Positions 31,728 through 53,096 are shown, numbered from the stretch's first letter. The stretch is DNA of 59,500 nucleotides from Prevotellaceae bacterium (GCA_031258755.1 JAIRMK010000207.1:1-59500); one strand, 5' to 3'. The notes: generated by a model not told the origin, from the sequence alone. Numbers and translations are program-made.

Positions 31728-34700
31728 ATGAGAACACAAAAAAAGATTAAACATTGCTTGATGCTTGTTGCTTTATTCCTGCTACCGATCATACAGATGC
31801 ATGCAGATGTGCAACAAGAGCTTGTTAACATTACCGGGAAAGTTATTGATGAAAATGGTGATGCCCTGGTTGGGGTCACAGTTCGTGTGAAAGACGGGAA
31901 AGCAGTAACGACTACAGATGGAGAGGGAGATTTCGTCTTACAGGCAACTGCTGCTTCAACCCTGATCTTCTCGTATGTGGGCTATGTGGACCAGGAAGTT
32001 AAAGTAACTTCTTCCGGAGTGATGAATATCACAATGACTGGGGGTGATGTGATACTCGACGAAGTAATCATTGTGGGATATGGTACACAGCGAAAAAAGG
32101 ATTTGACCGGAGGTCTTACGGTTGTTGGTAAAGAGAAATTGAATATGGTTTCTACTTCTAACTTAATGGATCGTTTGACAGGGCAAGTGGCAGGGCTCAA
32201 TATTACTGCCTCCAGTGCTGCTCCGGGGAGTGACCAAACCCTTCGTATTCGCGGGGAAAACTCCCTGTCTGCCAACAATTCTCCTTTAATTATTTTGGAC
32301 GGCATCCCCTATAGTGGCTCGTTGGTCGATCTCGACCCGAATATTATCGAAAATCTTTCTATTTTGAAAGATGCTTCGGCTGTAGCGATTTACGGATCGC
32401 GCGGATCTAACGGTGTAATACTCATTCAAACAAAAAGAGGCGCTATCGGGAAACCTCAGGTGACTTATAAAGGCCAGTTCGGATTTGCCGAACCGATGCA
32501 ATGGATAGAAGTGATGGGGCCTAATGAATATATACGTTTCAAACAAGACATAGGCCGCTTGAAAAACAATTATAAGGGTGACCAACTCGATCCTGTCGCA
32601 GGGGCAATTATCAGTGTCAGCGAAAAAGAAAATTATATTAACGGAGTCACGCATAACTGGCAGGATTACATTTTCCAAATAGGTGCTGTAATGGATCACC
32701 AGGTAGCTATATCGGGAGGCACGGAGAATACCAAATATATGGCTGCTGTTTCCTATCTGGACCAGGAAGGGGTAGTCTATAATTCGAAACTTACCCGTGC
32801 CAATATCTCTGCAAATATTGACCAGACGTTCAATAAATGGTTGACCATCGGTGTGGGAACCCAATTCGTACAAAAAGAAAACGGTGGCATAACCCCTAAT
32901 ATTGAACATGCCATAAAGCAGAGTCCGTATGGAAAATACAAAGATGAATACGGCTATTATGTTACTGAGCCTATGGAGTATTCTCTTATAACCAACCCGA
33001 TGATCAACGTAAATGCCGACCAGGATGTAACCAATCGGAACTTTTTCCTCAATACCTATGCCAATATCCTGTTACCGGTAAAAGGATTATCATTCAGGCT
33101 CAATTATGGTTACAACTATCGAAGTTCATTTACCGGAACATATTACGGACGCGACACCTATGCAGGTAGAGAACAGGGAGGACAAGTAGGCGGACAAGCC
33201 AGCATCAGCAATGGACACTATACGAGTTATACGTGGGAAAATATACTCCGGTATGAACGTGAAATAGGCAGTCATCGCTTCGATGCGACCGGCCTGTTCA
33301 GTATGCAGGAGACTAAAAATGTCTCGTCTTCCCAAAGCGGAGAGGGTTTCGTGACTGACGACACAAGCTATTTTATGATGGGTACGGCGGAACGTAACCA
33401 GAAAATATCTTCAGGGTTATCCGAATCGGCTATGCTTTCTTATATGCTTCGTTTGAATTATGGATACAAGGGCCGGTATATGCTTACACTGACCGGACGT
33501 TCCGATGGCTGTTCATTCTTTGGCGAGAACAATAAATATGCATTTTTCCCTTCTGCAGCCCTTGCCTGGCACATAGGAGAAGAGAATTTTGTAAAAGACA
33601 ATGTCAGTTGGATAGATATGCTTAAACTGAGGGTTTCCTACGGAGCTAATGGTAATCAGGCTATCGCTGCCTACAGGACATTAGACCGCCTCTATTCAAA
33701 AGTCAAATATATATGGGGCGATGGCGGTACAGCTGTCAATACTGCCTATTTGGCCAATGACGGCATCGGTAACCCGAACCTGAAATGGGAAACCACATAT
33801 ACCGCGAATATCGGTTTGGATTTCCAAATATTAAAAGGCCGGTTGAGCGGAACTGTCGATTTGTATCTCTCCAACACATACGACCTGCTTATGACCCGCA
33901 CGGTTCCTATCATGAACGGCTACAGCACGATTTATGACAATATAGGCCAAACCCGGAACAGGGGGATTGAAATAGCTTTGAATTCACAGAATATCCGAAA
34001 AAAAGATTTCACATGGAGTACCGATCTGGTCTTCACATTGAACCGCGATGAAATTGTAGAATTACGGGGAGACGGGAAAGACGATATTGCCAACAATTGG
34101 TACATAGGTGAGCCGTTGAGGATTTATTATGACTACAATATGGTAGGTATCTGGCAACAGGGGGATGAATTTTTCTTTACCGATGAAAATGGCAATACGA
34201 AGGAAATTCAAACCGGCGCCGCTCCCGGATCTGCTAAAATAGAGGATGTGGACGGAAATGGATACATCGATGCAAATGACAAGAAAATTATCGGCTCCAA
34301 AATGCCGAGTTTCACCGCGTCCATGAGCAACAGGGTGTCATATAAAGATTTCTATTTTTCATTCTTGCTGAATGGTGTATTCGGCGTTTGGCAGGAAGAC
34401 CATTTGGCTAACATGGGGGCTTGGACATTTGGGCTAACGAATTATGTACATGGCGCAAACTATTGGACGCCTGAAAATCCAGGTGCAGACATCGTTTCTC
34501 CGGGCTATACCAATACCCTCGGGCATGGTTATTACCATAGAACTTCGTATGTACAGATTAAGAATATAACCTTTGGTTACAGCATGGGAAAAAAGATCGC
34601 CGGCAAAATAGGTTTAAGTGCAATCAATGTGAGTTTGAGCGTCAACAATGCGCATACATTCTCTAATGTACGACAGGTTCTCAACTACGACAATAGCTGG

Positions 34701-34757
34701 ATGGCCTCTTACCCGACGGCTCGTTCTTATATGTTAGGATTAAATTTAACTTTCTAA
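31728..34757 (+). CDS. SusC/RagA-family TonB-dependent transporter (PUL 2)
   Basis: Start at the ATG at 31728 (MRTQKKIKHCLMLVALFLLPIIQMHA). ITGKVIDENGDALVGVTVRVKDG, DEVIIVGYGTQRKKDLTG. Ends LNLTF. Confidence 0.9.
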   Translation: MRTQKKIKHCLMLVALFLLPIIQMHADVQQELVNITGKVIDENGDALVGVTVRVKDGKAVTTTDGEGDFVLQATAASTLIFSYVGYVDQEVKVTSSGVMNITMTGGDVILDEVIIVGYGTQRKKDLTGGLTVVGKEKLNMVSTSNLMDRLTGQVAGLNITASSAAPGSDQTLRIRGENSLSANNSPLIILDGIPYSGSLVDLDPNIIENLSILKDASAVAIYGSRGSNGVILIQTKRGAIGKPQVTYKGQFGFAEPMQWIEVMGPNEYIRFKQDIGRLKNNYKGDQLDPVAGAIISVSEKENYINGVTHNWQDYIFQIGAVMDHQVAISGGTENTKYMAAVSYLDQEGVVYNSKLTRANISANIDQTFNKWLTIGVGTQFVQKENGGITPNIEHAIKQSPYGKYKDEYGYYVTEPMEYSLITNPMINVNADQDVTNRNFFLNTYANILLPVKGLSFRLNYGYNYRSSFTGTYYGRDTYAGREQGGQVGGQASISNGHYTSYTWENILRYEREIGSHRFDATGLFSMQETKNVSSSQSGEGFVTDDTSYFMMGTAERNQKISSGLSESAMLSYMLRLNYGYKGRYMLTLTGRSDGCSFFGENNKYAFFPSAALAWHIGEENFVKDNVSWIDMLKLRVSYGANGNQAIAAYRTLDRLYSKVKYIWGDGGTAVNTAYLANDGIGNPNLKWETTYTANIGLDFQILKGRLSGTVDLYLSNTYDLLMTRTVPIMNGYSTIYDNIGQTRNRGIEIALNSQNIRKKDFTWSTDLVFTLNRDEIVELRGDGKDDIANNWYIGEPLRIYYDYNMVGIWQQGDEFFFTDENGNTKEIQTGAAPGSAKIEDVDGNGYIDANDKKIIGSKMPSFTASMSNRVSYKDFYFSFLLNGVFGVWQEDHLANMGAWTFGLTNYVHGANYWTPENPGADIVSPGYTNTLGHGYYHRTSYVQIKNITFGYSMGKKIAGKIGLSAINVSLSVNNAHTFSNVRQVLNYDNSWMASYPTARSYMLGLNLTF

Positions 34758-34770
34758 ATCAAAATACGAT

Positions 34771-36423
34771 ATGAAAATGAAAAATTTCATAAAAAAAGGG
34801 CTGGTGAGCATGTTAATAATCGCCGCCACCGGATGTGAGAAATTTCTCGAAGAAGACTTAAAATCAGAATTGTCGCCTACCAATACCTTTACCAGCACCT
34901 ATGGATTTGAGGTAGGCTCTGCCGGACTTTATGCGCTTACGCGCGCCGAGTATAATACATGGGGCGAAGAAGATGCGTTTATGCACGGTGCTGCTTGTGT
35001 TTACGAAACATTGCATATTGCTACGGATATTGTGGAAGCAATAAACAGTGACGCCTCCCTGACGGCATTTGCCAATTTGACCCTGACGCCTGAAGAAAGG
35101 TTTGTGGCCTCATATTGGAGGTGGGCATATAGCGTGATCGCTTCAGCCAACGAAATATTGCTCTTTTCAGAAAAAAACAACAACTGGGATTTACCAACAG
35201 ATAAGATACGTTTTCAGGCCGAAGCCCGTTTTTTCCGCGCTTACGCTTACCGTACGTTGGTCTATCTCTATGGCGATGTACCCTATGTGGAAACAATATT
35301 ATATGATTTCCAACTCAATTTCACCCGTACGCCCAAAGCAGAAGTATTGGGATATATAATAGAGGATCTAAAATTTGCAACCGAATATTTGCCGGATAAT
35401 CCGGATAACGTGAAAGAAGGAAAACTCACCAAATGGGCTGCGTATCATTTATTAAGCGAAATGTATCTGTTACAGGAAGAATACACGCTGGCAGAGGAAG
35501 CCGCATTAGCTGTGATTAATAGCAAATATTTCGAGTTGATGAAGACCCGTTATGGCGTGAATGAAAAACTGCCCGGTGACGTATTCTGTGACTTGTTTAT
35601 TGAAAACAACCAAAACAGAAAAAGTGGCAACAAAGAGAGTATTTGGGTGCTGCAACTTGAATTTAATACAATCGGAGGAGGATCCAATTCTACCGATTGG
35701 ACACGCAGGGCGTGGATCCCTAATTATTCCAGTATAACAGGTTTTGTTTTAGCCGACTCACTGGGTGGTCGTGGTTTGGGACAGATCGTTCCCATGAAAT
35801 GGTGGATCGGCACCGGAGGCACCAACCTCACCGACAATATTACCGGCATTTTCGAGGCAACAGATATCCGTAACTCAAACTACAATATCAAACGCAACTG
35901 GTATTACAACAACCCGGCAGAAACGTCATTATATGGTAAAAAATGTAATATCACAGAATCAACCTGGTTCTCCGTTAAACATTTATTCCCGGCGCTAACC
36001 AAATTCTTCTATGGACGTGCAGAGAACTTAACCCTTACCGGTAGCTATAAAGACCGTATGAAATTCCGTTTGGCTGAAACCTATCTATTACTTGCCGAAG
36101 CTTACCTGGGACAGCAGAACCCTAATAAAGCTGCCGATGCGGTAAACGAAGTACGCAGGCGGGCTGGAGCAACACCAGTAAGCGCTATAGATATGACCAT
36201 GGATTATTTGCTTGATGAACGTATCCGTGAATTGGTGGGAGAAGAAAGCCGTCGTTTTACATTGGTGCGCACCAATAAACTGATAGACCGGGTAAGGACT
36301 TACAATACGACCCTTAGCGCTAAAATCACAGAAAGAGATTTATTGTGGCCTATTCCACAATCTATAATTGACGCTAACCGTGATATCGAATTTCCTCAAA
36401 ATCCGGGATACGGCGAAAATTGA
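34771..36423 (+). CDS. SusD/RagB-family lipoprotein (PUL 2)
   Basis: Lipobox IIAATGCEKF. FFRAYAYRTLVYLYGDVPYV, RLAETYLLLAEAYL and ERIRELVGEESRRF. Confidence 0.85.
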   Translation: MKMKNFIKKGLVSMLIIAATGCEKFLEEDLKSELSPTNTFTSTYGFEVGSAGLYALTRAEYNTWGEEDAFMHGAACVYETLHIATDIVEAINSDASLTAFANLTLTPEERFVASYWRWAYSVIASANEILLFSEKNNNWDLPTDKIRFQAEARFFRAYAYRTLVYLYGDVPYVETILYDFQLNFTRTPKAEVLGYIIEDLKFATEYLPDNPDNVKEGKLTKWAAYHLLSEMYLLQEEYTLAEEAALAVINSKYFELMKTRYGVNEKLPGDVFCDLFIENNQNRKSGNKESIWVLQLEFNTIGGGSNSTDWTRRAWIPNYSSITGFVLADSLGGRGLGQIVPMKWWIGTGGTNLTDNITGIFEATDIRNSNYNIKRNWYYNNPAETSLYGKKCNITESTWFSVKHLFPALTKFFYGRAENLTLTGSYKDRMKFRLAETYLLLAEAYLGQQNPNKAADAVNEVRRRAGATPVSAIDMTMDYLLDERIRELVGEESRRFTLVRTNKLIDRVRTYNTTLSAKITERDLLWPIPQSIIDANRDIEFPQNPGYGEN

Positions 36424-36463: not shown

Positions 36464-37675
36464 ATGAAAAAGGTAAAATATTTATATAAAACATTGCCGT
36501 TATTGTTTGCCATACTTTGTTTGAATGCCTGTATCTATGAAATTCAAGACATTGATAAGGTTAAAGAACATATAGAACTAACGGCTTCAGCTACCGACAT
36601 CGCGCTGGATGAAAACAATCTTACAACCGGTATGTTGACTTTCACATGGACTGAAGCGAGACAAATGTCCAGTGAGTACATTGTCTCTTATACCACAAAA
36701 CTGGATATTGTAGGCAACAACTTTGGTACGTCCACAGTGATCCTTAACTACGAGGACGAAGGGGTATTCAGTAGAAGCTTCACTTTCGAGCAATTGCACA
36801 ATTGGGCAAACGACAAATGGAAACTACCTATAAACAGGGTTTTTACACTCGAATTCCGGGTTACTGCCGAATGGGAAGGCGGGCCTACATTTGAAACACC
36901 TGAGGTCCGTACGGTTACTGTTGACGTACAACCTATTAAAGTTGTGGTTTTTGATGCCGACAAGATGTTCATTGCAGGTAATGCAGTGCCGGGATCTAAA
37001 ATAGAGATAAATAAAACTTTAGAGAATGCAAGTCAATATGCATGGTTTGGCAATCTAAATCCCGGAGAATTACAAATCCCTGTGGAATTAGAAGGAATGA
37101 CTTATTACATCATTCCGGAAGATGAAGATGGCAGTACGTTACAAGACGGTATCGCAGAAAATGTGAAAATGGAGGAAAATCCTGTTTCCTGGAACATAGC
37201 AACTGCGGGAGAATACCGTATTGTTATAAATATGGAAGCTAAAGTAGTTACCATTTACTCTTCTGCCACAGCGCTTCAACCTGCTGTTGTTAACTGGACA
37301 CATCCTATTAATGGAGCTCAACAAACTACTGTAACGCAACTATGGCGTTATAAAGCTTGGGAATGGGTTACTGACAGTAACCAATATTTTTCACAAAGCT
37401 TGGCTGACCCTCAGATATTTGTCTATTCCGGGCCTGCATTTAGCGGAACTACTAAATTTGGCGTCGCTGCACATAACAATAGTTATGTGTACACCAACGG
37501 TAATAACGGTGCAACTGTTGTGGCTGCTCTTAATACTGTTTACACCTTATATGGTGGCAATGGTGGTAGTGGTGCTGGAACGAATGAACGCAATTCGTAT
37601 ATAAATTTTACTCCGGCAACGAACTTTATTGTTATTAATATAAGAAATATGACGTTTTCTGCTGAAAGTCATTAA
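36464..37675 (+). CDS. SusE/SusF-like surface glycan-binding lipoprotein
   Basis: Lipobox ILCLNACIYE. SusE-like N-terminus LTASATDIALDENNLTTGMLTFTWTEARQMSSEYIVSYTTKLDIVGNNFG. Occupies the third position of the PUL. Confidence 0.55.
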   Translation: MKKVKYLYKTLPLLFAILCLNACIYEIQDIDKVKEHIELTASATDIALDENNLTTGMLTFTWTEARQMSSEYIVSYTTKLDIVGNNFGTSTVILNYEDEGVFSRSFTFEQLHNWANDKWKLPINRVFTLEFRVTAEWEGGPTFETPEVRTVTVDVQPIKVVVFDADKMFIAGNAVPGSKIEINKTLENASQYAWFGNLNPGELQIPVELEGMTYYIIPEDEDGSTLQDGIAENVKMEENPVSWNIATAGEYRIVINMEAKVVTIYSSATALQPAVVNWTHPINGAQQTTVTQLWRYKAWEWVTDSNQYFSQSLADPQIFVYSGPAFSGTTKFGVAAHNNSYVYTNGNNGATVVAALNTVYTLYGGNGGSGAGTNERNSYINFTPATNFIVINIRNMTFSAESH

Positions 37676-37688: not shown

Positions 37689-39257
37689 ATGAAAATTATA
37701 AACAACAAAACAATGATCTCTTGTGTATTGGCCGTATTCTTATGCTTCTCACTCTATACTTGTAAAGAGAGCAATGAAAATGAAAACGAAAATTATCCGG
37801 AAGCCACTTTAGTTAAACCTAAATACAATAGGATATCGACATTACATAATCCACTGAATGGTTGGGTTATGTACGCTTCAGCTTCAGCGGAAGACACCTA
37901 TTGGGATACGGAGTTCTATGTAGCAGACCTTGGGAAAAAGGTAAAAGCTATAGACTATGCTTCTGCTTGTTATATCCGCACCAGTTGGGCTACAATGAAC
38001 CCCGGTGATGGGGTTTATGCGTGGAGAGATCCTAATACTAAGGTTGGAAAAATGATTGAGGGCGCAAGACAAAGGGGGAAACCCATAGCCTTCCGCTTTG
38101 TGGTTGACGGACGCGATCAAGGTTTAAATACGCCGCAGTTTGTATTCGATAACGGCGCCGAATATTATCTTGAAAATGCCAGTTACCCGACCCGAAAAAC
38201 ACCGTATCCCCAAAATCCGGTGTTCCAACAATACTATACCAAATTTATTGAAGCATTGGCCGAAGATTTCAATGATCCCGACCGGACTGCTTTCATTGAT
38301 GCTTACGGTTTGGGTAAATGGGGTGAAGCGCACAATGTAGTTTATGAAGATCCTAACACTTCTACCGGCGCAAATACCGAAAGACTCAAAAGAGAGGTTT
38401 TCGAATGGATTACAAATTTATATACGCGGACCTTTACGGAGGTGCCGCTGGTTATCAATTATCACCGTGTAGTCGGGCATCCTGCAAGTGATGGAGCGCT
38501 TAACGAAAATACCGAAGAACTTTTGACCATGGCTATCAACAAAGGATATGGCCTTAGACAGGATGCTTTCGGCATGACTGATTATTATAAAAGTTGGGAA
38601 AAAAGCTTCGCTAAAACATGGAACTATAAACGCCCGATCATCATGGAAGGAGGCTGGATTACAGGCGGAACACATCGTTACTGGATTGATCCGAGCGGTA
38701 AATACCGCGAAGGCCACCCCGAAGATGTGCGGCAAGGAGAGTTCGATGCATCGATGGATGCGCATGTAAATATGATGGACTTCAGGGTGGGCAACGAAAC
38801 AGAAACCTGGTTTACATTATGTTTTGGGCTTGTACAACGCTTCATTTCCGAAGGCGGATACCGCCTCTATCCGGATCAGATATATTTACCTGAAAACATC
38901 AGTAAAGGAGCAGAAGTAACCATTTCCCATCGCTGGAGAAATATGGGCTGGGGATATTTCCCTAATAATATCCCGCAATGGAATTATAAATATAAAGTTG
39001 CTTTTGCCCTTTTGGATGCTGACGATAATGTGAAAAAGATATTGGTTGATACAGACAGTGAGCCGTCAAATTGGTTAAAGGACACCCCTGTCTCATATGA
39101 TTTCAAAATAACTGTAGATTTACCTGCAGGAGACTATAAGTGGGCTGTGGCCATTGTAGACACAAAAAAAGATAATCAACCCGCGATACAACTTGCCGTA
39201 AGTGATGATATTACTGCCGAAGGATGGGTTAAACTCCTGGATGTGCAGGTGAAATAG
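37689..39257 (+). CDS. putative glycoside-hydrolase-like TIM-barrel protein (DUF4874/DUF4832-like)
   Basis: Signal/lipobox FSLYTCKES. SWATMNPGDGVYAW and FIDAYGLGKWGEAH resemble GH42-like / DUF4874 motifs. The C-terminal beta-rich region is DUF4832-like. Assigned from memory only. Confidence 0.4.
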   Translation: MKIINNKTMISCVLAVFLCFSLYTCKESNENENENYPEATLVKPKYNRISTLHNPLNGWVMYASASAEDTYWDTEFYVADLGKKVKAIDYASACYIRTSWATMNPGDGVYAWRDPNTKVGKMIEGARQRGKPIAFRFVVDGRDQGLNTPQFVFDNGAEYYLENASYPTRKTPYPQNPVFQQYYTKFIEALAEDFNDPDRTAFIDAYGLGKWGEAHNVVYEDPNTSTGANTERLKREVFEWITNLYTRTFTEVPLVINYHRVVGHPASDGALNENTEELLTMAINKGYGLRQDAFGMTDYYKSWEKSFAKTWNYKRPIIMEGGWITGGTHRYWIDPSGKYREGHPEDVRQGEFDASMDAHVNMMDFRVGNETETWFTLCFGLVQRFISEGGYRLYPDQIYLPENISKGAEVTISHRWRNMGWGYFPNNIPQWNYKYKVAFALLDADDNVKKILVDTDSEPSNWLKDTPVSYDFKITVDLPAGDYKWAVAIVDTKKDNQPAIQLAVSDDITAEGWVKLLDVQVK

Positions 39258-44463: not shown

Positions 44464-46251
44464 ATGAAACTAAAAACGACAACCATCATATCATTTATAC
44501 TCTCATGCCTGTTTTTCTCAAATATTGGAGCGCAGGAATTAATGACCAATATTTATGGGCGCGACGTTCAGTCGTTGAACGGTAAATGGGACGCTATTAT
44601 TGACCTGTACGACCAGGGGCGTAAGAACAACATCTTCCTGAATAAAAAGCCCGAAGGCAAGACTGATTTTTATGAATATTCTTTCGATCACGGTTTGCGC
44701 CTGAACGTTCCATCTGATTGGAATAGCCAGTTGCCGGAGTTAAAATATTATGAAGGAACCGTATGGTATGCACGCAAGTTCGATGTGCAGAAAGAAGCCG
44801 ATGAGCGTTTGTTCCTCTACTTCGGGGCAGTTAGTTACCGTTGCCGTGTTTACCTGAACGGTAAAGAAACAGGCAGACACGAAGGCGGCTTCACCCCTTT
44901 CCTTATAGAGGTTACAGCGCTGGTAAAAGATACCGGCAACTTCCTTGCCCTGGAAGTGAATAATACAAGAACAGCAGATGCTATCCCGGCGATGGCTTTC
45001 GACTGGTGGAACTATGGCGGTATCACCCGCGACGTGTTTCTTGTGAAAACGCCAAAAACATTTATACAGGACTATTTTATCCGGCTGGATAAATACAAAG
45101 CAGATAAAATAGACGTACATGTTACATTATCGGAAAAGACCGCTAATACTTCCGTTGAAATAGAAATACCGGAACTGAAAATCAAACAAACCCTGGTCAC
45201 AAATAATGAAGGGGTTGCAGCTACTTCATTCCATGTGAAGAAGCTGGAACGCTGGTCTCCGGAATTGCCGAAACGATATAAAGTCATTGTCTCTTCCAAT
45301 AATGACAAGGTAGAAGAAATGATCGGTTTCCGCAATATCCGGGTAAAAGGAGAAGACATTTATCTGAATGATAAACCTGTATTTTTGAAGTCAATCAATT
45401 TCCACGAAGAGATACCGCAACGCAAGGGACGCGCTTTTTCAGAAGCCGATGCGGTGATGCTCCTTTCCGAAGCAAAGGCACTGGGATGTAATATGATCCG
45501 ACTTGCTCATTATCCGCAGAATGAATATACCATTCGCATAGCGGAAAAAATGGGCTTCCTGCTATGGGAAGAAATCCCTGTCTGGCAAGGTATAGACTTC
45601 AAGAATGAAGAAACTAAACTTAAAGCCGGTAATATGATAAAAGAGATGGTGATGCGTGATAAGAACCGCTGTGCGCTCACATTTTGGGGAGTAGCCAATG
45701 AAACGCAACCATCCGAACTGAGGAATGATTTCCTGAAATATCTTATCCGATGCTGCAAGGACATAGATACTACCCGCCTGATTACGGCTGCTTTCGATTT
45801 AGTACGGTTCAACAGGGATCGACAGGTATTTATCATGGATGACCTTTTTATAAAAGAACTCGATGTCGTGGCTGTAAATAAGTACATGGGCTGGTATCAT
45901 CAATGGCCTGTAATACCGGACAAAGCCATTTGGGATGTAGCCAAAGGCCAGCCGCTTATTGTCTCCGAATTCGGAGGGGAAGCCTTATACGGAAAAACAG
46001 GTGATGCCGACGTGGTAAGTTCTTGGAGTGAAGATTACCAGGCGACGCTTTACAGGGATAATTTAGAGATGTTCAAGCATATTCCTAATCTTAGGGGAAC
46101 CAGTCCGTGGGTACTGTTCGATTTCCGTTCGCCGTTTCGTTTCCACCCTGTCAATCAGGAAGGATGGAACAGGAAAGGTCTTGTATCCGATCAGGGGTAC
46201 AGAAAAAAAGCATGGTATATCATGAAAGAATATTATGACAATATAAAATAA
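44464..46251 (+). CDS. glycoside hydrolase family 2 (beta-glucuronidase/beta-galactosidase-like)
   Basis: NGKWDAIIDLYD, GGFTPFLIEVT, IRLAHYPQNEY, WGVANE (acid/base) and VSEFGGEA (nucleophile). Confidence 0.8.
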   Translation: MKLKTTTIISFILSCLFFSNIGAQELMTNIYGRDVQSLNGKWDAIIDLYDQGRKNNIFLNKKPEGKTDFYEYSFDHGLRLNVPSDWNSQLPELKYYEGTVWYARKFDVQKEADERLFLYFGAVSYRCRVYLNGKETGRHEGGFTPFLIEVTALVKDTGNFLALEVNNTRTADAIPAMAFDWWNYGGITRDVFLVKTPKTFIQDYFIRLDKYKADKIDVHVTLSEKTANTSVEIEIPELKIKQTLVTNNEGVAATSFHVKKLERWSPELPKRYKVIVSSNNDKVEEMIGFRNIRVKGEDIYLNDKPVFLKSINFHEEIPQRKGRAFSEADAVMLLSEAKALGCNMIRLAHYPQNEYTIRIAEKMGFLLWEEIPVWQGIDFKNEETKLKAGNMIKEMVMRDKNRCALTFWGVANETQPSELRNDFLKYLIRCCKDIDTTRLITAAFDLVRFNRDRQVFIMDDLFIKELDVVAVNKYMGWYHQWPVIPDKAIWDVAKGQPLIVSEFGGEALYGKTGDADVVSSWSEDYQATLYRDNLEMFKHIPNLRGTSPWVLFDFRSPFRFHPVNQEGWNRKGLVSDQGYRKKAWYIMKEYYDNIK

Positions 46252-46281
46252 ACAATATAAATCCTGTTAAAATTGAAGCGT

Positions 46282-47319
46282 ATGAAAAATGTATTTTTGA
46301 GAGAAAGCATGATTTGGAAATTTTTCCTGTTGCTTATATTCCTTTTATCGGGAACCGTATCTTTATCCTGTTCGGGTGATGAAAAGAACAATCCCGACCC
46401 CGTCAATAACGAGACGCCTCTTGATAAAGGGCCGGTACGTATATTGGCTATAGGGAACAGCTTCTCTCAGGATGCGGTTGAGCAATACTTATACGAGCTG
46501 GCCGAAGCCGAAGGAATTGAAATCATTGTCGCCAATCTATACATTGGAGGCTGTTCCTTGGAACGGCATGTGTCGAACGCAAGGAATAACAGCGCGGCTT
46601 ATGAATATCGTAAAATAACAGGAGGAGTCAAAACAAACAAGTCGAACGTGACGCTGGCGGCCGGATTAACGGATGAAAGCTGGGACTATATAAGCTTGCA
46701 ACAGGTTAGCGGAAATTCAGGTCAATATGAAACCTTTGCCGCCTCTTTACCCGAACTCGTGCAATATGTAAAAACGCATACATCAAATAAAAACATGCAG
46801 CTAATGCTGCACCAGACATGGGCTTATGCGGCAAATTCCAACCATGCCGATTTTCCTAAATATGACAAGAATCAAACAAAAATGTATGAAGCAATTGTAG
46901 ACGCCGTAAACAGGGCATCTCAACTTGTCGATATAGATATAATTATACCGTCGGGAACGGCGATACAGAATGGACGCACCTCCTATATTGGAGATAATTT
47001 TACACGCGACGGATATCATCTGGAGGTAACCTATGGCAGATACACAGCTGCGTGTACGTGGTTTGAAAAAATATTTGGAAAAAATGTGGTTGGTAATACG
47101 TATGCACCGGATGGGGTACACGCTTCAAAGATTGCTGTTGCGCAACATGCGGCGCATACTGCCGTTCGGAGCCCTGATGCAGTAACTGTTTTGGAAGAAT
47201 ACAAAAATCACCCGGTAGATACGGATGCTGTAGGAAATATAACGATTGAGGTATTGAGAAATTCGGGAAATACGTATCAGGCTGTAATAAGTGGTGTCAT
47301 TATCGCTGCGGCTGAATAA
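46282..47319 (+). CDS. DUF4886 / SGNH-hydrolase-like lipoprotein (possible carbohydrate esterase)
   Basis: The ORF-track start 46273 is TTG; the ATG is at 46282. Lipobox VSLSCSG. VRILAIGNSFSQDAVEQYLYELAEAEGIEIIVANLYIGGCSLERH is DUF4886-like. Confidence 0.6.
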   Translation: MKNVFLRESMIWKFFLLLIFLLSGTVSLSCSGDEKNNPDPVNNETPLDKGPVRILAIGNSFSQDAVEQYLYELAEAEGIEIIVANLYIGGCSLERHVSNARNNSAAYEYRKITGGVKTNKSNVTLAAGLTDESWDYISLQQVSGNSGQYETFAASLPELVQYVKTHTSNKNMQLMLHQTWAYAANSNHADFPKYDKNQTKMYEAIVDAVNRASQLVDIDIIIPSGTAIQNGRTSYIGDNFTRDGYHLEVTYGRYTAACTWFEKIFGKNVVGNTYAPDGVHASKIAVAQHAAHTAVRSPDAVTVLEEYKNHPVDTDAVGNITIEVLRNSGNTYQAVISGVIIAAAE

Positions 47320-47331: not shown

Positions 47332-50043
47332 ATGCATAAGATTATATTTACTTTATTATTCATTTTTCAGTTTGCTGCAACTAAAGGGCAGACACAGTCG
47401 ATCGACTTATCAGGCCAATGGGGCTTTCAGACGGATGTGATGGATTTCCGCAGGGGGTCGTTATCCCCTCGTTATAACCATAAATTGCAAGACACCATTA
47501 CCCTGCCGGGAATTACCGACGATTACAAAATCGGTTATAAAGTGCCCTATAAATATATTGACCGCCTGACCCGTAAATACGAGTATATGGGGCCGGCATG
47601 GTATCAGCGCGATATAGAGATACCCAAAGAGTGGGGAGGCAAACGTATATTTATGTACTTCGAACGCACCCATTGGTTAAGCTCCATCTATGTAGACACC
47701 AAAGAAGTAAGCAAAATAGATTATATCAGTGTGCCTCATAACCACGACTTGACCGGCTTTGTGACTCCGGGAAAAACACACCGTTTTACAGTCTGTATAG
47801 ACAACCGCTTCCAATATAATACCCATAAATGGAACCATGCCCATACGGAGTTTACCCAGATCAACTGGAACGGTATTTTGGGGGAGATCAGGCTGGCAGC
47901 TGTTGATCCGGTTTATATAGATGATATGCAAGTATACCCAAATATTGCAGACAACAGCATAAAAGTAAAAATACAGATTAATAACTATACCGGGAAAGAT
48001 GTAACAGGAACTGCAACTTTTACTATAAAAGGAGAAAACTACACTACAAAAAAAGAAGTGACCGTAAACGGAAAGAGTTCTGTTTTTTCTTTCGAAGAGG
48101 CGATCTTGTTAGGGAAGAATATCAAACTATGGGACGAATTCAACCCGAATGTATACAGCATTACTTGTCAATTAAACACAGATGCCGGTAAAACAAAATA
48201 CCGGCATGAAAAATCGGTAGATTTCGGTATGCGCGAAGTTAAGCAAGGCAAAAACCACCTGTTGCTTAACAACCGTCCTATTCATCTGCGAGGAACCGTA
48301 GAGAATGCCGTATTCCCTAAAACAGGCTATGCCCCTGTAGACGATGTGGAATGGGAAAGAATATTGCTCATCATAAAAGATTACGGGATGAACCATGTAC
48401 GCTTCCACTCCTGGTGTCCTCCAAAAGCAGCTTTCCGTATGGCCGATAAACTTGGTATCTATTTTGAAATAGAAATGCCGATGTGGGGCAGGGATGCAGA
48501 GGTAGACGAGGCTCGTTATAATTTCTTCCGTCTCGAGATGCGTGCCATCCTCAAAGAATATGGTAACCACCCTTCATTTGTATTGTATTGCAACGGAAAC
48601 GAGATAACCGGCAACTTCGATTTTATAGAAGAACTGACCGCGACAGGCCGCGAGTTGGATAACCGCCATTTGTTTAGCGGGTCGACAGCCCGTACAAGAG
48701 TAAAATCAGATCAATATTACGTTTCGCAACAAACAAATAAAGGGTCTGTGAAAGTATATGAAGGGTTGCCGTATACCGATTGGGACAGGAATAAGGAATC
48801 AGATGTAGATGTGCCTGTTATTTCCCACGAAGCGGGACAACGTTGTGTATATCCTGATTTCCACGAAATAAGTAAATATGCAGATAGCCCTGTCGAAGCC
48901 CGCAACTTCGAGGTTTTCCGCGATATGCTGGAAGAGAATGGTATGCTCGATCAGGCGCACGACTTTTTCAAAGCATCGGGTGCACTGACTGTTGTAGAGT
49001 ATAAAGCCGTCATAGAAGCTTTGCTTCGCTCATCCAAATCGGCAGGTTTTCAGCTGTTGTCTATCAATGACTTCCCGGGACAGGGTTATGCTCCGGTAGG
49101 CATCCTTGACCCGTTCTGGGATTCAAAAGGATTAGTTACTGCCGAAAAATTCCGGGAATCATGTGCTCCCACAGTGGCGCTGCTGCGTTATCAGAAGAGT
49201 TCATTTTTCAATGACGAAATATTTACAGGCAAAGCCGAAGTATATAATTTTAGCAAGGCGGGAATTAAAAATGCAAAAATCAAATGGGCATTAACAGATC
49301 AATCGGGCATGACATTAAAAAAAGGCGACCTGAAAACCCAAAATATAGGCAATAACGGTGTATTCCCTGTAGGTGCGTTTTCATTCGATTTCAAAGGAAT
49401 AACTTCCCCTCAAAAACTGACCGTTCAACTGTCGGTTAACGACAATATCAGGAATAGTTGGAATATATGGGTATATCCGAAGAATGAAAAACTGATGACA
49501 TCGACAGATGATGTACTTTACACAACCGTATATGATGATAAAGCCAAACAACAGCTTGCACAGGGCAGGAAAGTTGTATTGCTCCCATTACCGAATAAAG
49601 TCAAAGGGCGTAAATCTACTTTCCACAACCATTTCTGGAACCCTATAATGTTCGCCTGGCCGCCAATGACTATCGGTTGTCTAATACACGACAAAGAACC
49701 TGTGTTCGACGATTTCGTTACTTCCTATCATACCGACTGGCAATGGTGGGATATACTGGAAAATGCCAGGGTGATAGAAATGCACGATACGCCAAAAGAA
49801 CTCAGGCCGTTTTTACAAGTAATAGATGCCTTTGATAATAACAAAAAATTAGGCATTGGATTTGAAGCTAATGTAAACGGCGGAAAACTTCTGGTATTGG
49901 CCGTGGACACACAAAAGAAAATGGAACAACGTCCGGCCACAAGACAACTGCTGGAAAGCGTAGATAAGTACGTAAAGAGTGATAAATTTAATCCGCAGGT
50001 AAAAGTGGAAGAATTGTTTATCCAGTCATTCTTGATGAAGTAA
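47332..50043 (+). CDS. GH2-like clan GH-A glycoside hydrolase (sugar-binding domain plus TIM barrel), 903 aa
   Basis: Signal peptide. LSGQWGF, MNHVRFHSWCPPKAAFRMADKLGIYFEIEMPMWG, VLYCNGNE and VISHEAGQ. Confidence 0.65.
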   Translation: MHKIIFTLLFIFQFAATKGQTQSIDLSGQWGFQTDVMDFRRGSLSPRYNHKLQDTITLPGITDDYKIGYKVPYKYIDRLTRKYEYMGPAWYQRDIEIPKEWGGKRIFMYFERTHWLSSIYVDTKEVSKIDYISVPHNHDLTGFVTPGKTHRFTVCIDNRFQYNTHKWNHAHTEFTQINWNGILGEIRLAAVDPVYIDDMQVYPNIADNSIKVKIQINNYTGKDVTGTATFTIKGENYTTKKEVTVNGKSSVFSFEEAILLGKNIKLWDEFNPNVYSITCQLNTDAGKTKYRHEKSVDFGMREVKQGKNHLLLNNRPIHLRGTVENAVFPKTGYAPVDDVEWERILLIIKDYGMNHVRFHSWCPPKAAFRMADKLGIYFEIEMPMWGRDAEVDEARYNFFRLEMRAILKEYGNHPSFVLYCNGNEITGNFDFIEELTATGRELDNRHLFSGSTARTRVKSDQYYVSQQTNKGSVKVYEGLPYTDWDRNKESDVDVPVISHEAGQRCVYPDFHEISKYADSPVEARNFEVFRDMLEENGMLDQAHDFFKASGALTVVEYKAVIEALLRSSKSAGFQLLSINDFPGQGYAPVGILDPFWDSKGLVTAEKFRESCAPTVALLRYQKSSFFNDEIFTGKAEVYNFSKAGIKNAKIKWALTDQSGMTLKKGDLKTQNIGNNGVFPVGAFSFDFKGITSPQKLTVQLSVNDNIRNSWNIWVYPKNEKLMTSTDDVLYTTVYDDKAKQQLAQGRKVVLLPLPNKVKGRKSTFHNHFWNPIMFAWPPMTIGCLIHDKEPVFDDFVTSYHTDWQWWDILENARVIEMHDTPKELRPFLQVIDAFDNNKKLGIGFEANVNGGKLLVLAVDTQKKMEQRPATRQLLESVDKYVKSDKFNPQVKVEELFIQSFLMK

Positions 50044-50069: not shown

Positions 50070-50840
50070 ATGAGAAAAACATATTTGTTCGTTATTCCAC
50101 TTTTTTTTCTAACAGGTGTCTTGCATAGTCAGGAGATACAAATGAGCCGGAGCGCTTCTTTGGAACAAGTTTATGGGGATGTCACAGAATCGGAAAATTT
50201 ATTGCCGTTTAATGATCTGAACATGGAATTCGGCTATGTTCTTTATCAGGCGGAAATAAAAGTGAAGCCGGAAGAAACTCTACTGGAGCTGGAGAATGTA
50301 CGCGACTATGCCGTTGTATATCTTAATGACAAACTTCAAGGCACTGTTACGGATGATCATAAAAAGTTAACGTTAAACATATCTCCCGGAACATATACCT
50401 TGAAACTATATGCCGAAAATATTGGTCGTATTACTTACGGCCCGGAGATACTGGATAATTCCAGGGGACTGTTCGGAAGCATTAACATTAATGGAGCGGA
50501 AATTGAAAATTGGACGATAATACCTCTTGGCATTAAATCCTGTGATGTAAACAGCTTGCAATTTTCGTCGCAAAATACAAATGGTGCGCCTTCTTTCCAT
50601 AAAGGATATTTTGATATAACCGAACCGGAAGAAACCTACCTGAATATTTCAGGATGGGGGATGGGCGAAGTATGGATCAACGGAGCCTATCTGGGTTCGT
50701 ATTGGGAAGAAGAAAAACAACAATCAATTCAAATTCCGGCTAATATTTTAGTCAAAGGAAAGAATGAAGTTGTGATATTTGATCTGAAAAATAATAAACA
50801 GGAATTATTACGATTGTCCGGTAAACCCTTGTTTAAATAA
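50070..50840 (+). CDS. stand-alone secreted protein equivalent to the C-terminal jelly-roll domains of a GH35 beta-galactosidase (no catalytic barrel)
   Basis: Signal peptide MRKTYLFVIPLFFLTGVLHSQ. FGYVLYQAEI, VRDYAVVYLNDKLQG, LYAENIGRITYGP, PSFHKGYFDI, GWGMGEVWINGAYLGSYW and NEVVIFD parallel the GH35 C-terminal domains. Confidence 0.6.
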   Translation: MRKTYLFVIPLFFLTGVLHSQEIQMSRSASLEQVYGDVTESENLLPFNDLNMEFGYVLYQAEIKVKPEETLLELENVRDYAVVYLNDKLQGTVTDDHKKLTLNISPGTYTLKLYAENIGRITYGPEILDNSRGLFGSININGAEIENWTIIPLGIKSCDVNSLQFSSQNTNGAPSFHKGYFDITEPEETYLNISGWGMGEVWINGAYLGSYWEEEKQQSIQIPANILVKGKNEVVIFDLKNNKQELLRLSGKPLFK

Positions 50841-50882
50841 TAAAAAGGGGTAACTTTGAACGAAAATAAATGGGAATATATC

Positions 50883-53096
50883 ATGAAAAATAGAAAAATT
50901 GCTTTTTTATTGCTGTTGGCAGCCTCATGTAATCTGACAACTCAGAGTAAAAAGGATCAACCTGTATACAAAGACGCAGGTCGATCCGTAGAAGAAAGGG
51001 TCAATGATCTGGTGTCAAGAATGACATTGGATGAAAAGGTGATGCAACTCAACCAATATACATTGGGCAGAAGTGACAATGCCAATAACATGGCCGATCC
51101 GGTAAATGATATTCCTGCAGAAATCGGTTCTCTTATATATTTCAGCAGCAATCCAGACTTACGCAACCGGTTACAGAAAAGGGCGATGGAAGAAACCCGC
51201 TTAGGTATACCTGTCATATTTGGCTATGACGTAATTCATGGTTATAGAACTGTTTATCCCATATCCTTGGCTCAAGCATGTTCGTGGAATCCCGAATTAG
51301 TAAAACAGGCTTGTGCTGTAGCAGCGCAGGAAGCAAGAATGTCGGGTGTCGACTGGACTTTTTCACCAATGATAGATGTAGCCCGCGACGGACGGTGGGG
51401 CAGGGTATCGGAAGGATATGGCGAAGACCCGTATACAAATGCTGTATTTGGTGTGGCCTCAGTGAAAGGTTATCAGGGTAATGATCTTTCAAATGGTAAA
51501 AATATAGCTGCCTGTCTGAAACACTATATCGGATATGGAGCATCGGAAGCAGGACGCGATTATGTTTACACTGAAATCTCGCGACAAACATTGTGGGACA
51601 CCTATATGTTACCTTACGAAGAAAGCGTAAAAGCCGGAGTGGCTACTTTGATGAGCTCATTCAACGATATAAGCGGTACGCCAAGTACAGCCAATCATTA
51701 TATACTGACCGGGATACTTAAACAACGCTGGGGACATGATGGATTTGTGGTTTCAGACTGGGGTGCTATAGCGCAACTTTGTCCGCAAGGCGTTGCGAAA
51801 GACAACAAGGAGGCGGCACAAAAAGCATTCAATGCCGGAGTGGACATGGATATGATGAATCGAGCTTATGACAACCATTTAGGTGATTTGGTGAAAGAGG
51901 GCAAAGTATCCGAAGAATTGCTTAACGATGCCGTAAGACGCGTGCTAAGGGTTAAATTTAGACTGGGGCTTTTCGAAAATCCTTATACACCTCAATCCAC
52001 AGAGAAAGAAAGATTTCTTCTACCCCAAAGCTTAAAAATAGCAGAACAACTATCCGAAGAATCTATTGTGTTATTAAAAAATGAGAATAATACATTACCC
52101 TTAAAAAATGCTTCGAAAATAGCAGTAATAGGACCTATGGCCAAAAGCCAATGGCACTTGCTCGGTTCATGGAGGGCTCAGGGGAAAGCCGAAGATGCAA
52201 TCACTGTCTATGATGGCCTGGAAAGAGAATTTAAGGATAAAGCGAAATTGTTTTATGCTGCCGGTTGTGATTTCGACGGAGAAGACAAATCAGGATTTAA
52301 AAAAGCCGTAACCATAGCAAAAGAGGCTGATGCGGTAGTCGTATGTTTAGGAGAAAAAGCCCAATGGAGCGGAGAGAATGCGTCCAGATCTACAATTGCA
52401 TTGCCCCAGATACAGGAAGAATTAGTGATCGAACTTAAAAAACTGGGCAAGCCTGTTATATTATTACTTTCAAGCGGACGTCCGTTGGAATTAAACCGCT
52501 TGGAGAAACTTAGTAATGCCATATTACAAATCTGGCAGCCTGGTATAGCCGGAGGAAATCCGGTTGCCGGTATCGTTGCCGGACGCATAAACCCCTCGGG
52601 AAAGTTGTCTATTACGTTCCCTTATTCAACAGGACAAATCCCTGTCTATTACAATCACCGCCAGAGTGCTCGTCCTCACCAGGGGAAATACCAGGATATA
52701 CCGAGTGCACCTCTTTATGAATTTGCACATGGTCTTAGTTATACAACCTTTGAATATGGAGATTTAAAGCAGTCTGCACTAAAAGTAGGAAAAGGGGATA
52801 AGTTGTCAATAGAAGTACCTGTAACAAATACAGGAAATATAGATGGAATGGAAACAGTCCATTGGTTCATCTGTGATCCGGTGTCCTCTATTTCACGTCC
52901 GGTTAAGGAGCTTAAACATTTTGAAAAACAAATGATAAAAGTAGGTGAAACAAAAATCTTCCGTTTTGAGATTGACCTTGAAAAGGTCTTTGGTTTTGTA
53001 GATGGCGAAGGAAACCGTTTTCTGGAATTGGGGGACTATTACATTATTGTAAAAGACAAGAAAGTGAAAGTGGAAGTCTTGACGGAGACATTTTAA
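50883..53096 (+). CDS. bglX: glycoside hydrolase family 3 beta-glucosidase
   Basis: The ORF-track start 50856 is TTG; the ATG is at 50883. RLGIPVIFGYDVIHGYRTVYPISLAQACSWNPEL, KHYIGYG and GFVVSDWGAI (nucleophile Asp). Confidence 0.9.
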   Translation: MKNRKIAFLLLLAASCNLTTQSKKDQPVYKDAGRSVEERVNDLVSRMTLDEKVMQLNQYTLGRSDNANNMADPVNDIPAEIGSLIYFSSNPDLRNRLQKRAMEETRLGIPVIFGYDVIHGYRTVYPISLAQACSWNPELVKQACAVAAQEARMSGVDWTFSPMIDVARDGRWGRVSEGYGEDPYTNAVFGVASVKGYQGNDLSNGKNIAACLKHYIGYGASEAGRDYVYTEISRQTLWDTYMLPYEESVKAGVATLMSSFNDISGTPSTANHYILTGILKQRWGHDGFVVSDWGAIAQLCPQGVAKDNKEAAQKAFNAGVDMDMMNRAYDNHLGDLVKEGKVSEELLNDAVRRVLRVKFRLGLFENPYTPQSTEKERFLLPQSLKIAEQLSEESIVLLKNENNTLPLKNASKIAVIGPMAKSQWHLLGSWRAQGKAEDAITVYDGLEREFKDKAKLFYAAGCDFDGEDKSGFKKAVTIAKEADAVVVCLGEKAQWSGENASRSTIALPQIQEELVIELKKLGKPVILLLSSGRPLELNRLEKLSNAILQIWQPGIAGGNPVAGIVAGRINPSGKLSITFPYSTGQIPVYYNHRQSARPHQGKYQDIPSAPLYEFAHGLSYTTFEYGDLKQSALKVGKGDKLSIEVPVTNTGNIDGMETVHWFICDPVSSISRPVKELKHFEKQMIKVGETKIFRFEIDLEKVFGFVDGEGNRFLELGDYYIIVKDKKVKVEVLTETF

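Follow-up and report, generated by a model that had tools for sequence, protein, structure and literature searches.

In polysaccharide utilisation loci (PULs) for glycosaminoglycan, xanthan and ulvan-type glycans, GH88 acts downstream of a PL-family lyase. A further point of comparison is provided by the arabinogalactan-protein/gum-arabic PULs of Bacteroides thetaiotaomicron, which reportedly (the work being that of Cartmell et al. 2018 and Munoz-Munoz et al. 2017) use a GH16 endo-galactanase, a Rha-GlcA lyase, GH105 and GH2/GH35 galactosidases. The locus that we compare with these systems lies in a stretch of 59,500 nucleotides (the window) and comprises twelve co-directional genes on the + strand, at 31728-53096. 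The gaps between the genes are only 8-40 bp, and the twelve genes therefore form one operon: this is a real glycan-harvesting operon of a Bacteroidales bacterium and a single-operon PUL. Each open reading frame was recovered at the coordinates given here, together with the regulatory gene that precedes the operon.

26621-30670, + strand: hybrid two-component sensor/regulator, HTCS (Pfam Reg_prop, Y_Y_Y, HisKA, HATPase_c, Response_reg, HTH_18)
31728-34757, + strand: SusC-like TonB-dependent transporter (CarbopepD_reg_2, Plug, TonB_dep_Rec_b-barrel)
34771-36423, + strand: SusD-like surface glycan-binding lipoprotein (SusD_RagB, 111.7 bits)
36464-37675, + strand: SusE-like surface lipoprotein (SusE, 48.7 bits; lipoprotein signal)
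37689-39257, + strand: DUF4832-like lipoprotein (DUF4832, PF16116, weak at 24.4 bits, below the Pfam cut-off of 29.2 bits)
39294-40499, + strand: GH88 unsaturated glucuronyl hydrolase, lipoprotein (PDB 3wiw, 9e-111)
40526-42385, + strand: Sec-exported flavoprotein with a CBM6/35-like N-terminal domain and an FAD-binding domain (PF12831, 226.5 bits)
42395-44455, + strand: divergent GH36-like (clan GH-D) alpha-glycosidase, periplasmic (Melibiase, 32.1 bits, just above the cut-off of 27 bits)
44464-46251, + strand: GH2 beta-hexuronidase, beta-glucuronidase type (PDB 6d8k, 970 bits)
46273-47319, + strand: DUF4886 SGNH-type esterase, lipoprotein (DUF4886, 364.5 bits)
47332-50043, + strand: second GH2, related to BT4151-type exo-beta-1,4-galactosidase (NF049890, 807.8 bits, below the cut-off of 1500)
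50070-50840, + strand: free-standing GH35 C-terminal beta-sandwich module, secreted (BetaGal_ABD_1, 82.8 bits; BetaGal_gal-bd, 72.7 bits)
50856-53096, + strand: GH3 BglX-type exo-glycosidase, lipoprotein (GH3 N, GH3 C and Fn3-like domains; 661.7 bits against the BglX model, cut-off 666)

The gene order and all the family calls of a preliminary description of the locus were reproduced by Pfam, NCBIfam or PDB searches. Its picture of a GH88-bearing PUL without a recognisable lyase also held, as none of the Pfam-modelled PL families was found among the twelve proteins, the three that it had left unassigned included. By Pfam, SusC (with its plug) and SusD are adjacent and co-directional with glycan-active enzymes, as in Sus-like PULs, and the SusD-like protein has a lipoprotein Cys within its signal peptide. 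The SusC gene starts with the Met at 31728, directly followed by the signal peptide; a longer reading frame from 31638 was rejected as the start, being an upstream extension of the gene. The HTCS (1349 aa) lies directly upstream of the operon, outside 31728-53096, and is presumed to be its regulator. It is kept upstream in type-1 loci, with orthologues 73-86% identical preceding SusC in Dysgonomonas, Paludibacter and Alistipes, whilst the Bacteroides versions of the operon have FecR-type anti-sigma factors as regulators. The preliminary description had missed this gene, which accompanies the operon in related loci too.

With the glycosaminoglycan, xanthan and ulvan-type PULs the locus shares its SusC/D base, intact GH88 catalytic residues and a KduI/UxaC pathway in the genome, where UxuA is also present. 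In contrast to them, the operon has no lyase, sulfatase, alpha-mannosidase or hexosaminidase, and GH88 is instead accompanied by a GH2 hexuronidase, the GH36-like protein, the GH2/GH35-module pair, GH3 and an SGNH esterase. The logic shared with the arabinogalactan-protein/gum-arabic PULs is that of a GlcA-capped galactan-type glycan: taken across genomes, the system has a beta-glucuronidase, an unsaturated uronyl hydrolase, GH2/GH35 parts of beta-galactosidase type and alpha-galactosidase-type enzymes, and a GH16-lyase-GH105 module is shared only by the window's relatives. However, neither a GH43 exo-galactanase nor an arabinofuranosidase is present in the window, the core genes of the operon family include GH3 and multiple esterases, and the lyase linked to the operon in its relatives is of PF05426 type, not PL27 or PL42.

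GH88 is about 57% identical to 3wiw, the nearest relative with a solved structure, which is deposited only as ‘Glycosyl hydrolase family 88’. In an alignment with the Bacillus UGL 1vd5 it conserves the Asp of the HD and IID motifs as well as the R/H/Q/W set, these being the residues that we take, by presumed numbering, to be catalytic and substrate-binding. Its sequence and the catalytic Asp pair place the protein in GH88, with a predicted activity on 4,5-unsaturated uronides. Of the 80 related loci, 17 have GH88, in most cases immediately 3′ of the GH2 hexuronidase gene and often beside a CE15 glucuronoyl esterase. The GH2 at 44464-46251 matches over its full length a structure listed as the Bacteroides ovatus GUS 6D8K (PMC10535898). 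The three GH2 domains (N, middle and TIM) are present and the N-x-K motif for recognition of the carboxylate is retained as WNRKG; by sequence this is the architecture of a GUS. It scores 548 bits against the beta-galacturonidase AqGalA (7vqm) and 239 bits against the E. coli-type GUS equivalog, for which the cut-off is 544; we found no assignment of a natural glycan for 6D8K or its relatives 6d89, 6d1n and 7vqm in the searchable literature. The second GH2 matches PDB 8u01 at 573 bits and has orthologues 69-75% identical in B. acidifaciens and in Sphingobacteriaceae-type genomes. Directly 3′ of it, in Alistipes, Bacteroides and Sphingobacteriaceae-type loci as in the window, the GH35 module is a separate gene, with the C-terminal domains only and no catalytic barrel. 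The nearest structures to GH3 are JMB19063, 5tf0, 5xxl and Lin1840, and in three loci (L052, L069, L075) GH3 is fused to DUF4886.

The DUF4832-like protein defines the operon family. It gave no match to PDB sequences, profile search included, and its close orthologues carry a precomputed PF16116 match and are named as DUF4832 proteins. The AlphaFold model (pLDDT 90.8) has a (beta/alpha)8 barrel followed by a C-terminal beta-sandwich, and the best fold match was the GH14 beta-amylase (Z 21.4, rmsd 3.8, 294 residues aligned), with GH42, GH35 and GH5 folds at Z 16-18. As modelled, the barrel is a clan-GH-A-type TIM barrel of glycosidase type. Across the family alignment E213 and E320 are invariant and C25 is nearly so, and an acidic stretch directly follows the lipoprotein Cys. 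The protein is probably a surface endo- or exo-glycanase. Bacteroides systems have up to four such paralogues each.

The flavoprotein is assigned to PF12831 by its family score and an intact dinucleotide-binding motif (GGGxAG, invariant in 39 sequences), and is predicted to bind flavin. In its model (pLDDT 77.8) CBM35/CBM6 folds were matched at Z 13-14, whereas the flavoprotein matches were generic only (Z 15-16). It has the same signal peptide, CBM-like N-terminus and invariant motif as the uncharacterised ‘FAD dependent oxidoreductase’ proteins of PF12831 found in other PULs, and differs in that the window's clade is, in some MAGs, fused to a glycosidase, either GH3 (L040-L042) or the GH36-like protein (L069, L075). 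In 56 of 72 loci the GH36-like gene lies directly 3′ of that for the flavoprotein. The profile of its product matched GH36 alpha-galactosidases in the PDB, down to only 5e-7, and the DDGW motif (D348-D349-G350-W351) and the K-x-D nucleophile motif (K436-I437-D438) are invariant in 33 sequences; at the sequence level, membership of the clan GH-D superfamily is clear and the CAZy family GH36 a tentative assignment.

The operon family recurs in the 80 Bacteroidales loci compared, with a core of DUF4832-like protein, flavoprotein, GH36-like protein, GH2 hexuronidase, DUF4886 and GH3. It occurs in Dysgonomonas, Paludibacter, Alistipes, Bacteroides and Muribaculaceae, and a second order, of soil type (Sphingobacteriaceae-type genomes), has it at 66-76% identity; for SusC the identities are 62-79% in type-1 loci and 66-73% in the Sphingobacteriaceae-type genomes. 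In one of the latter, the 100%-complete G717, the operon is 69-76% identical and includes GH88, GH97 and CE15 but not the flavoprotein. The Bacteroides version is divided between two PULs in tandem, with GH105 in place of GH88; within it, B. acidifaciens and Bacteroides sp. f07 have GH2 hexuronidase orthologues 68-70% identical. The operons of relatives also add GH97 and esterases of CE15, AXE1-like and SASA-like types.

Where, then, does the GH88 substrate come from? Three answers had been put forward in the preliminary description, namely a lyase encoded elsewhere, one of the unassigned proteins, or a different specificity of GH88; the first is now the best supported and the second is disfavoured. 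The models of the DUF4832-like protein and the flavoprotein matched only glycosidase and flavoprotein folds, none of them lyase-like, and in the PDB the profile of the GH36-like protein matched glycosidases and no lyase. Among the few lyase families searched, PL8, Hepar_II_III and PF05426-type enzymes were absent from the whole MAG, which is 65.6% complete and contains a second GH105 cluster, also lyase-less. In the Sphingobacteriaceae-type genomes G188, G711, G644 and G461, a PF05426 protein (‘Alginate_lyase’, PL5-like; 128 bits) adjoins the system together with GH16 and GH105. A DUF4832-like orthologue is present in 21 of the 26 genomes with this lyase and in 14 of the 275 without it, and the two lie at most 40 kb apart in 15 genomes, although these are genomes of one family, not independent, and the figures overstate the support. 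The lyase is missing from 14 of the 35 Sphingobacteriaceae-type genomes with the operon, the GH88-bearing G717 included, so the link is frequent and not obligatory; no homologue was found in the window, the MAG or the 80 Bacteroidales loci. Because the PF05426-GH16-GH105 module adjoins orthologous operons in another order, a lyase encoded elsewhere in the genome, or supplied by neighbouring organisms, is the most likely source. Our reading, to which we give a probability of roughly 0.55, is that this is an uncharacterised PUL family for an acidic esterified heteroglycan, with the GH88 substrate coming from a conventional lyase outside the operon.

The operon would instead be self-sufficient if a core protein (the flavoprotein, the DUF4832-like or the GH36-like protein) made unsaturated uronate by new chemistry, such as oxidation-assisted elimination. 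GH88 or GH105 does recur with the system in several lineages, the Bacteroidales loci have no classical lyase, in L063, as in the window, GH88 directly precedes the flavoprotein gene, and the fusions to glycosidases suggest that the flavoprotein probably acts on the glycan. However, no flavoprotein gene was found in the eight Sphingobacteriaceae-type loci compared, and at least two of them (G717, G188) keep GH88; outside the Bacteroidales, the flavoprotein is dispensable for the operon family. Its orthologues (62-68% identity) also occur in PULs that carry GH20 or LacZ-type GH2 but lack uronate enzymes, as well as outside PULs. The other two candidates fare no better, as the barrel modelled for the DUF4832-like protein is of clan-GH-A type and has two invariant Glu, and the GH36-like protein retains the motifs of a retaining alpha-glycosidase; we know of no lyase family that uses a clan-GH-A barrel, GH36-like or flavoprotein fold. 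All three are disfavoured as the source of the GH88 substrate, and new chemistry seems to us very improbable.

Esterified, 4-O-substituted GlcA undergoes spontaneous beta-elimination, and GH88 might clear the unsaturated, blocking caps so formed, or have a shifted specificity, while CE15 and the GH2 hexuronidase handle the intact residues. This is unlikely, if less so than the other alternatives: the gene order GH2 hexuronidase-GH88-CE15 in L004, L018, L020, L022 and L038 fits it, as do complete genomes with a GH88 operon and no linked lyase, but CE15 is absent from the window operon and was not found in the MAG, and many genomes do have a genuine lyase module linked to the system. A different specificity is also made less likely by the intact catalytic residues of GH88, whose sequence gives no sign of an altered mechanism. 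The target might, finally, be small saponin-, flavonoid- or lipid-linked glycosides carrying GlcA, Gal, Glc and acyl groups, with the DUF4832-like protein splitting glycan from aglycone and the flavoprotein acting on the aglycone. Exo-enzymes and esterases dominate the enzyme set, the GH2 hexuronidase has as its nearest relative of solved structure a gut beta-glucuronidase that has been studied with small glucuronides, and a Foldseek search with the DUF4832-like model placed Endoglycoceramidase II among the top matches. Those fold matches are, however, generic across clan GH-A with beta-amylase on top, SusC/D/E with an HTCS typically marks loci for oligo- and polysaccharides, and related systems have a GH16 endo-glycanase and a polysaccharide-lyase-type protein, which leaves small glycosides an improbable target, only marginally ahead of new chemistry.

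With a conventional lyase outside the operon, we propose that the HTCS would sense an oligosaccharide and switch on the operon, and that the glycan would be bound and taken up by SusC, SusD and SusE. The DUF4832-like lipoprotein, which sits where PULs usually place a surface glycanase, may make the first cuts, and periplasmic exo-enzymes would then trim the fragments. DUF4886 (in relatives also CE15, AXE1-like and SASA-like enzymes) would take off esters, the GH2 hexuronidase saturated terminal beta-GlcA or beta-GalA, GH88 the 4,5-unsaturated GlcA caps, the GH36-like enzyme (in relatives also GH97) alpha-galactosyl-type residues, and the second GH2, the GH35 C-module and GH3 beta-Gal and beta-Glc. 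The caps would be generated by the lyase, which in the soil relatives may belong, with GH16 and GH105, to a neighbouring module of the same system, and in this bacterium may be encoded in the third of the genome that the MAG lacks or be provided by community members, the bacterium then scavenging their products. The flavoprotein would be a Bacteroidales add-on, acting on or beside the same glycan, and not the source of the GH88 substrate.

The operon family is widespread, conserved, horizontally spread and so far uncharacterised; no characterised equivalent was found in the searchable literature, which agrees with the earlier view, which could name no matching textbook PUL. That view had also pointed to an acidic, acetylated heteropolysaccharide, and the mix of enzymes likewise indicates an acidic, esterified heteroglycan. 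From the enzyme set we therefore infer that the target is a plant or microbial heteroglycan that contains Gal and Glc, is esterified and carries glucuronate decorations.

The preliminary description had placed twelve co-directional reading frames at 31728-53096, and these are present in the window; as the gaps between them are only 8-40 bp, the twelve genes form one operon. The families named in that description were all reproduced by Pfam, NCBIfam and PDB sequence searches, and the SusC start it had chosen, at 31728, is the one which is followed by a signal peptide. To these genes we add a hybrid two-component sensor (HTCS) gene, absent from the earlier account, which lies directly upstream and is conserved together with the operon in related loci. 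Activities and locations throughout are deduced from sequence, structural models and gene context.

Genes of the operon and the adjoining sensor, with the matches behind each assignment
26621-30670, directly upstream of the operon: HTCS
from 31728, + strand, 5' part of the operon: SusC, SusD and SusE, family matches (Pfam)
37689-39257, + strand: DUF4832-like protein, weak DUF4832 match, 24.4 bits against a cut-off of 29.2
next gene, + strand: GH88, match to PDB 3wiw, 9e-111
40526-42385, + strand: PF12831 FAD protein (the flavoprotein), 226 bits, ~185 additional residues N-terminal to the domain
42395-44455, + strand: GH36-like protein, weak Melibiase/GH36 match, 32 bits
from 44464, + strand: GH2, 970 bits to PDB 6d8k
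next gene, + strand: DUF4886 protein, 364 bits
next gene, + strand: second GH2, relative of the BT4151-type galactosidase, 808 bits against a cut-off of 1500
50070-50840, + strand: GH35 C-module, 256 aa, GH35 C-terminal domains only, no catalytic barrel
to 53096, + strand: GH3, BglX-type, 661.7 bits against a cut-off of 666

Between the HTCS and SusC genes lies a 218-aa ORF (31045-31701) which matched no Pfam or NCBIfam family. It has paralogues in the same metagenome-assembled genome (MAG), with 76% identity on contig C99, 54% on C182 and 39% on C130, and is a multi-copy gene, not a chance ORF. About 390 bp past the GH3 stop, a hairpin with a 13-bp stem followed by a T-rich tail (53484-53516) is the sole terminator-like site of the region, where 0.2 would be expected by chance.

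The reading that we favour, with a probability of roughly 0.55, is that the genes form an operon of the standard Sus type, directed at an esterified heteroglycan which is decorated with glucuronate and contains beta-Gal or beta-Glc together with alpha-Gal-type residues. The DUF4832-like lipoprotein would be the probable first-acting glycanase, with periplasmic exo-enzymes and esterases completing the breakdown. GH88 would take off unsaturated GlcA caps produced by a classical lyase that is absent from the operon, and which may be encoded in a portion of the genome that was not sampled, or be supplied by other members of the community; the flavoprotein would be an addition made in the Bacteroidales. 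As to the substrate, we infer that the best fit is with glycans of the arabinogalactan-protein or gum type, or with acidic exopolysaccharides of bacteria or fungi.

The DUF4832-like protein has no sequence relative in the PDB, including in a search with a 37-sequence profile. Its model (pLDDT 90.8) consists of a (beta/alpha)8 barrel and a C-terminal beta-sandwich, and the best fold match is beta-amylase of GH14 (Z 21.4, rmsd 3.8, 294 aligned), the next being GH42, GH35 and GH5 (Z 16-18). Two invariant residues, E213 and E320, are near the ends of the predicted strands 200-204 and 317-321, positions that would be those of the clan GH-A catalytic pair. The protein is a lipoprotein with an acidic stretch after its Cys, and its gene is directly 3' of that for SusE, which would be the usual slot of a surface glycanase in PULs. 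The modelled barrel is probably the specificity-defining glycanase of the operon family. In the GH36-like protein the DDGW and K-I-D motifs are invariant, and a PDB search with its profile recovers GH36 alpha-galactosidases.

The uronate enzymes have closer structural relatives. GH88 is ~57% identical to the solved 3wiw (labelled in the PDB only as 'Glycosyl hydrolase family 88'), which we take to be Phep_2830 of Pedobacter heparinus, and relative to the Bacillus UGL its catalytic Asp positions and binding residues are retained. The GH2 at 44464 is near the solved beta-glucuronidase 6D8K of Bacteroides ovatus and keeps the N-x-K motif, and it also scores 548 bits against the beta-galacturonidase 7vqm; together these indicate a beta-hexuronidase, acting on GlcA or GalA.

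Eighty loci were fetched around close relatives of the flavoprotein, including those of Dysgonomonas, Paludibacter, Alistipes, Bacteroides finegoldii, B. acidifaciens, Phocaeicola plebeius and Muribaculaceae. The GH36-like gene is directly 3' of the flavoprotein gene in 56 of 72 loci, the DUF4832-like gene directly 5' of it in 46 of 76, and the GH2 hexuronidase is found in 52 of the 80. Accessory genes comprise an AXE1-type esterase, DUF5040, a further GH2 and a GH97 which the NCBIfam model assigns as a retaining alpha-galactosidase. GH88 is present in 17 of the 80 loci, those with the window-type SusC/D and HTCS; its gene is usually directly 3' of the GH2 hexuronidase gene, and often a CE15 glucuronoyl esterase comes next. 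A reading of GH88 as only peripheral to a core that does not depend on uronate was given up when a search for the GH88 and GH105 families located a GH105 2-3 kb upstream of the flavoprotein PUL in B. finegoldii, B. acidifaciens and Bacteroides sp. f07, which makes an unsaturated-uronyl hydrolase a recurring component of the system. This GH105 belongs to a second PUL directly upstream, which also has SusC/D/E, two DUF4832-like paralogues and a GH3 (68%). To these B. acidifaciens adds a GH36-like paralogue (64% identical to that of the window), the second GH2 (70%) and the GH35 C-module (55%), and Bacteroides sp. f07 instead a second GH3 with a PA14 insert. An anti-sigma factor gene stands between the upstream PUL and the flavoprotein PUL. 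Judged against this tandem arrangement, the window operon merges the two PULs into one compact locus, in which GH88 stands where the other version has GH105.

The GH35 C-module is a separate gene directly 3' of the BT4151-like GH2 also in three of the fetched loci (L018:20926-21708, L084:6299-7060 and L108:3861-4652). The arrangement is kept in Alistipes, Bacteroides and the Sphingobacteriaceae-type genomes, and the two proteins probably work as a pair.

Outside the Bacteroidales, DUF4832-like orthologues with 63-74% identity are named from Pedobacter, Mucilaginibacter, Sphingobacterium and Echinicola. A close orthologue was present in only one genome among 400 sampled of the class, and in 35 of the 301 genomes of that one carrier's order. 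In G717, a genome that is 100% complete, the operon is nearly the same, its proteins being 69-76% identical (GH36-like, GH97, GH2 hexuronidase, GH88, second GH2, GH35 C-module, GH3, SusC, SusD, SusE, DUF4832-like, CE15 and HTCS); the flavoprotein gene is absent from it and from all eight loci fetched from that order. In four further genomes (G188, G711, G644 and G461) the system is adjoined by a module encoding a 370-aa PF05426 'Alginate_lyase' protein (128 bits), GH16, GH105, a DUF4886-like esterase, two SusC/D pairs, CE15 and a DUF4832-like paralogue. Of the 301 genomes, 26 carry an orthologue of this lyase. The DUF4832-like orthologue is present in 21 of these 26, compared with 14 of the 275 that lack the lyase; since members of one family do not count as independent observations, the association is to be taken as a strong hint, not as a statistic. 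The two genes are at most 40 kb apart on one contig in 15 genomes, whilst 14 of the 35 operon-bearing genomes of that order, including G717, are without this PF05426 lyase. In G555 and G706 a 409-430-aa protein encoded between the HTCS and SusC genes of the orthologous operon (L100:4352-5578 and L102:19671-20960) has a weak GH28-like beta-helix match (24.8 bits), a fold compatible with either a hydrolase or a lyase.

The genome from which the window comes is a MAG of 1.65 Mb, 65.6% complete, so that the absence of a gene from it proves little. No PL8, Hepar_II_III or PF05426 domain, from the few lyase families searched by Pfam model, was found in it, nor any homologue of the Sphingobacteriaceae-type lyase and GH16. 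The MAG carries UxaC, UxuA and KduI, and a second GH105 cluster, on contig C168 (L109:1709-11695), encodes UxuA, GH28, a 706-aa fusion of GH105 with pectinesterase (CE8), UxaC and an MFS transporter; this contig too is without a lyase. The G+C content of the operon is 38-44%, against 46-56% in the flanks with their housekeeping genes; its proteins share 66-76% identity with their counterparts in another order; and a flavoprotein orthologue was found in none of 18 same-family genomes and in one of 30 relatives of the MAG searched. Taken together, these features point to horizontal spread of the operon, which looks to have been acquired in that way here.

The earlier account had remarked that the operon is without a recognisable lyase, and this holds: no protein of the locus matches a lyase family in the Pfam, NCBIfam or PDB searches. 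Nor was a lyase found in any Bacteroidales version of the system examined. The favoured reading has three rivals. One, already proposed in the preliminary description, is that one of the three unassigned proteins (DUF4832-like, flavoprotein or GH36-like) makes the GH88 substrate by a new, lyase-free chemistry; all three are unlike the known lyase folds, and of the alternatives we hold this to be the least probable, and very improbable in itself. GH88 might otherwise act on unsaturated caps formed non-enzymatically from esterified GlcA, or have some other specificity; CE15 esterases do recur beside it, its UGL residues are retained, and we regard this as unlikely, if the likeliest of the alternatives. 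That the target is a glycoside and not a polysaccharide is more doubtful again.

The flavoprotein has an ordinary Sec signal peptide, and its model combines a CBM6/35-like N-terminal domain (fold matches with Z 13-14) with a generic two-domain FAD fold (Z 15-16) and an invariant GGGxAG motif. When the model was searched with Foldseek and VIA, nothing stood out among the hits, all of them general flavoprotein or CBM structures, and ESM Atlas look-ups returned only family names. The idea that PF12831 proteins are sometimes annotated as 'xanthan lyase' found no substantiation and was dropped. There are natural gene fusions, of the flavoprotein with the GH36-like protein in two MAGs (L069:9926-13810 and L075:9830-13837; 1295 and 1336 aa) and of GH3 with the flavoprotein in three (e.g. 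L040:7727-11833, 1369 aa), from which it very probably shares its glycan and compartment with the fused glycosidases. Locus L052 has fusions of DUF4886 with GH3 (15924-18908, ~1000 aa) and of GH3 with a SASA-type esterase (6782-9775, 998 aa). Flavoprotein orthologues at 62-68% identity adjoin GH20, LacZ-type GH2 or unrelated genes. On the favoured reading the protein is a Bacteroidales addition; it probably acts on the glycan, and with such neighbours it is not tied to uronates. We suggest, tentatively, that this CBM35-like/PF12831 protein may be a new periplasmic carbohydrate-active redox enzyme of anaerobic Bacteroidales, altering a sugar residue, for example by oxidation of a hydroxyl, such that a resistant linkage of this and other glycans becomes cleavable; if so, it would be an 'auxiliary activity' family missing from current PUL models. 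In a different, ECF-regulated PUL type, a ~825-aa protein with no Pfam or NCBIfam family is encoded directly 5' of flavoprotein orthologues (L064:7458-9929), with homologues in L048, L070, L073, L077, L080 and L033, and sometimes with tandem flavoprotein paralogues.

No characterised equivalent of the operon or of its unassigned families was found in the literature searched, and the operon adds to the known orphan PULs without representing a new type of system. Cultured members of gut and insect-gut communities carry its family (Alistipes, Bacteroides finegoldii, B. acidifaciens, Phocaeicola plebeius and Dysgonomonas), as do Sphingobacteriaceae-type soil genomes. Worth following are the family of DUF4832-type barrels and the exported flavoprotein with its glycosidase fusions, to both of which the inducing glycan, once found, would give functions. 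It would also explain the occurrence of GH88 or GH105 without a lyase, which is recurrent in small-genome Bacteroidales and probably reflects the scavenging of other organisms' lyase products.
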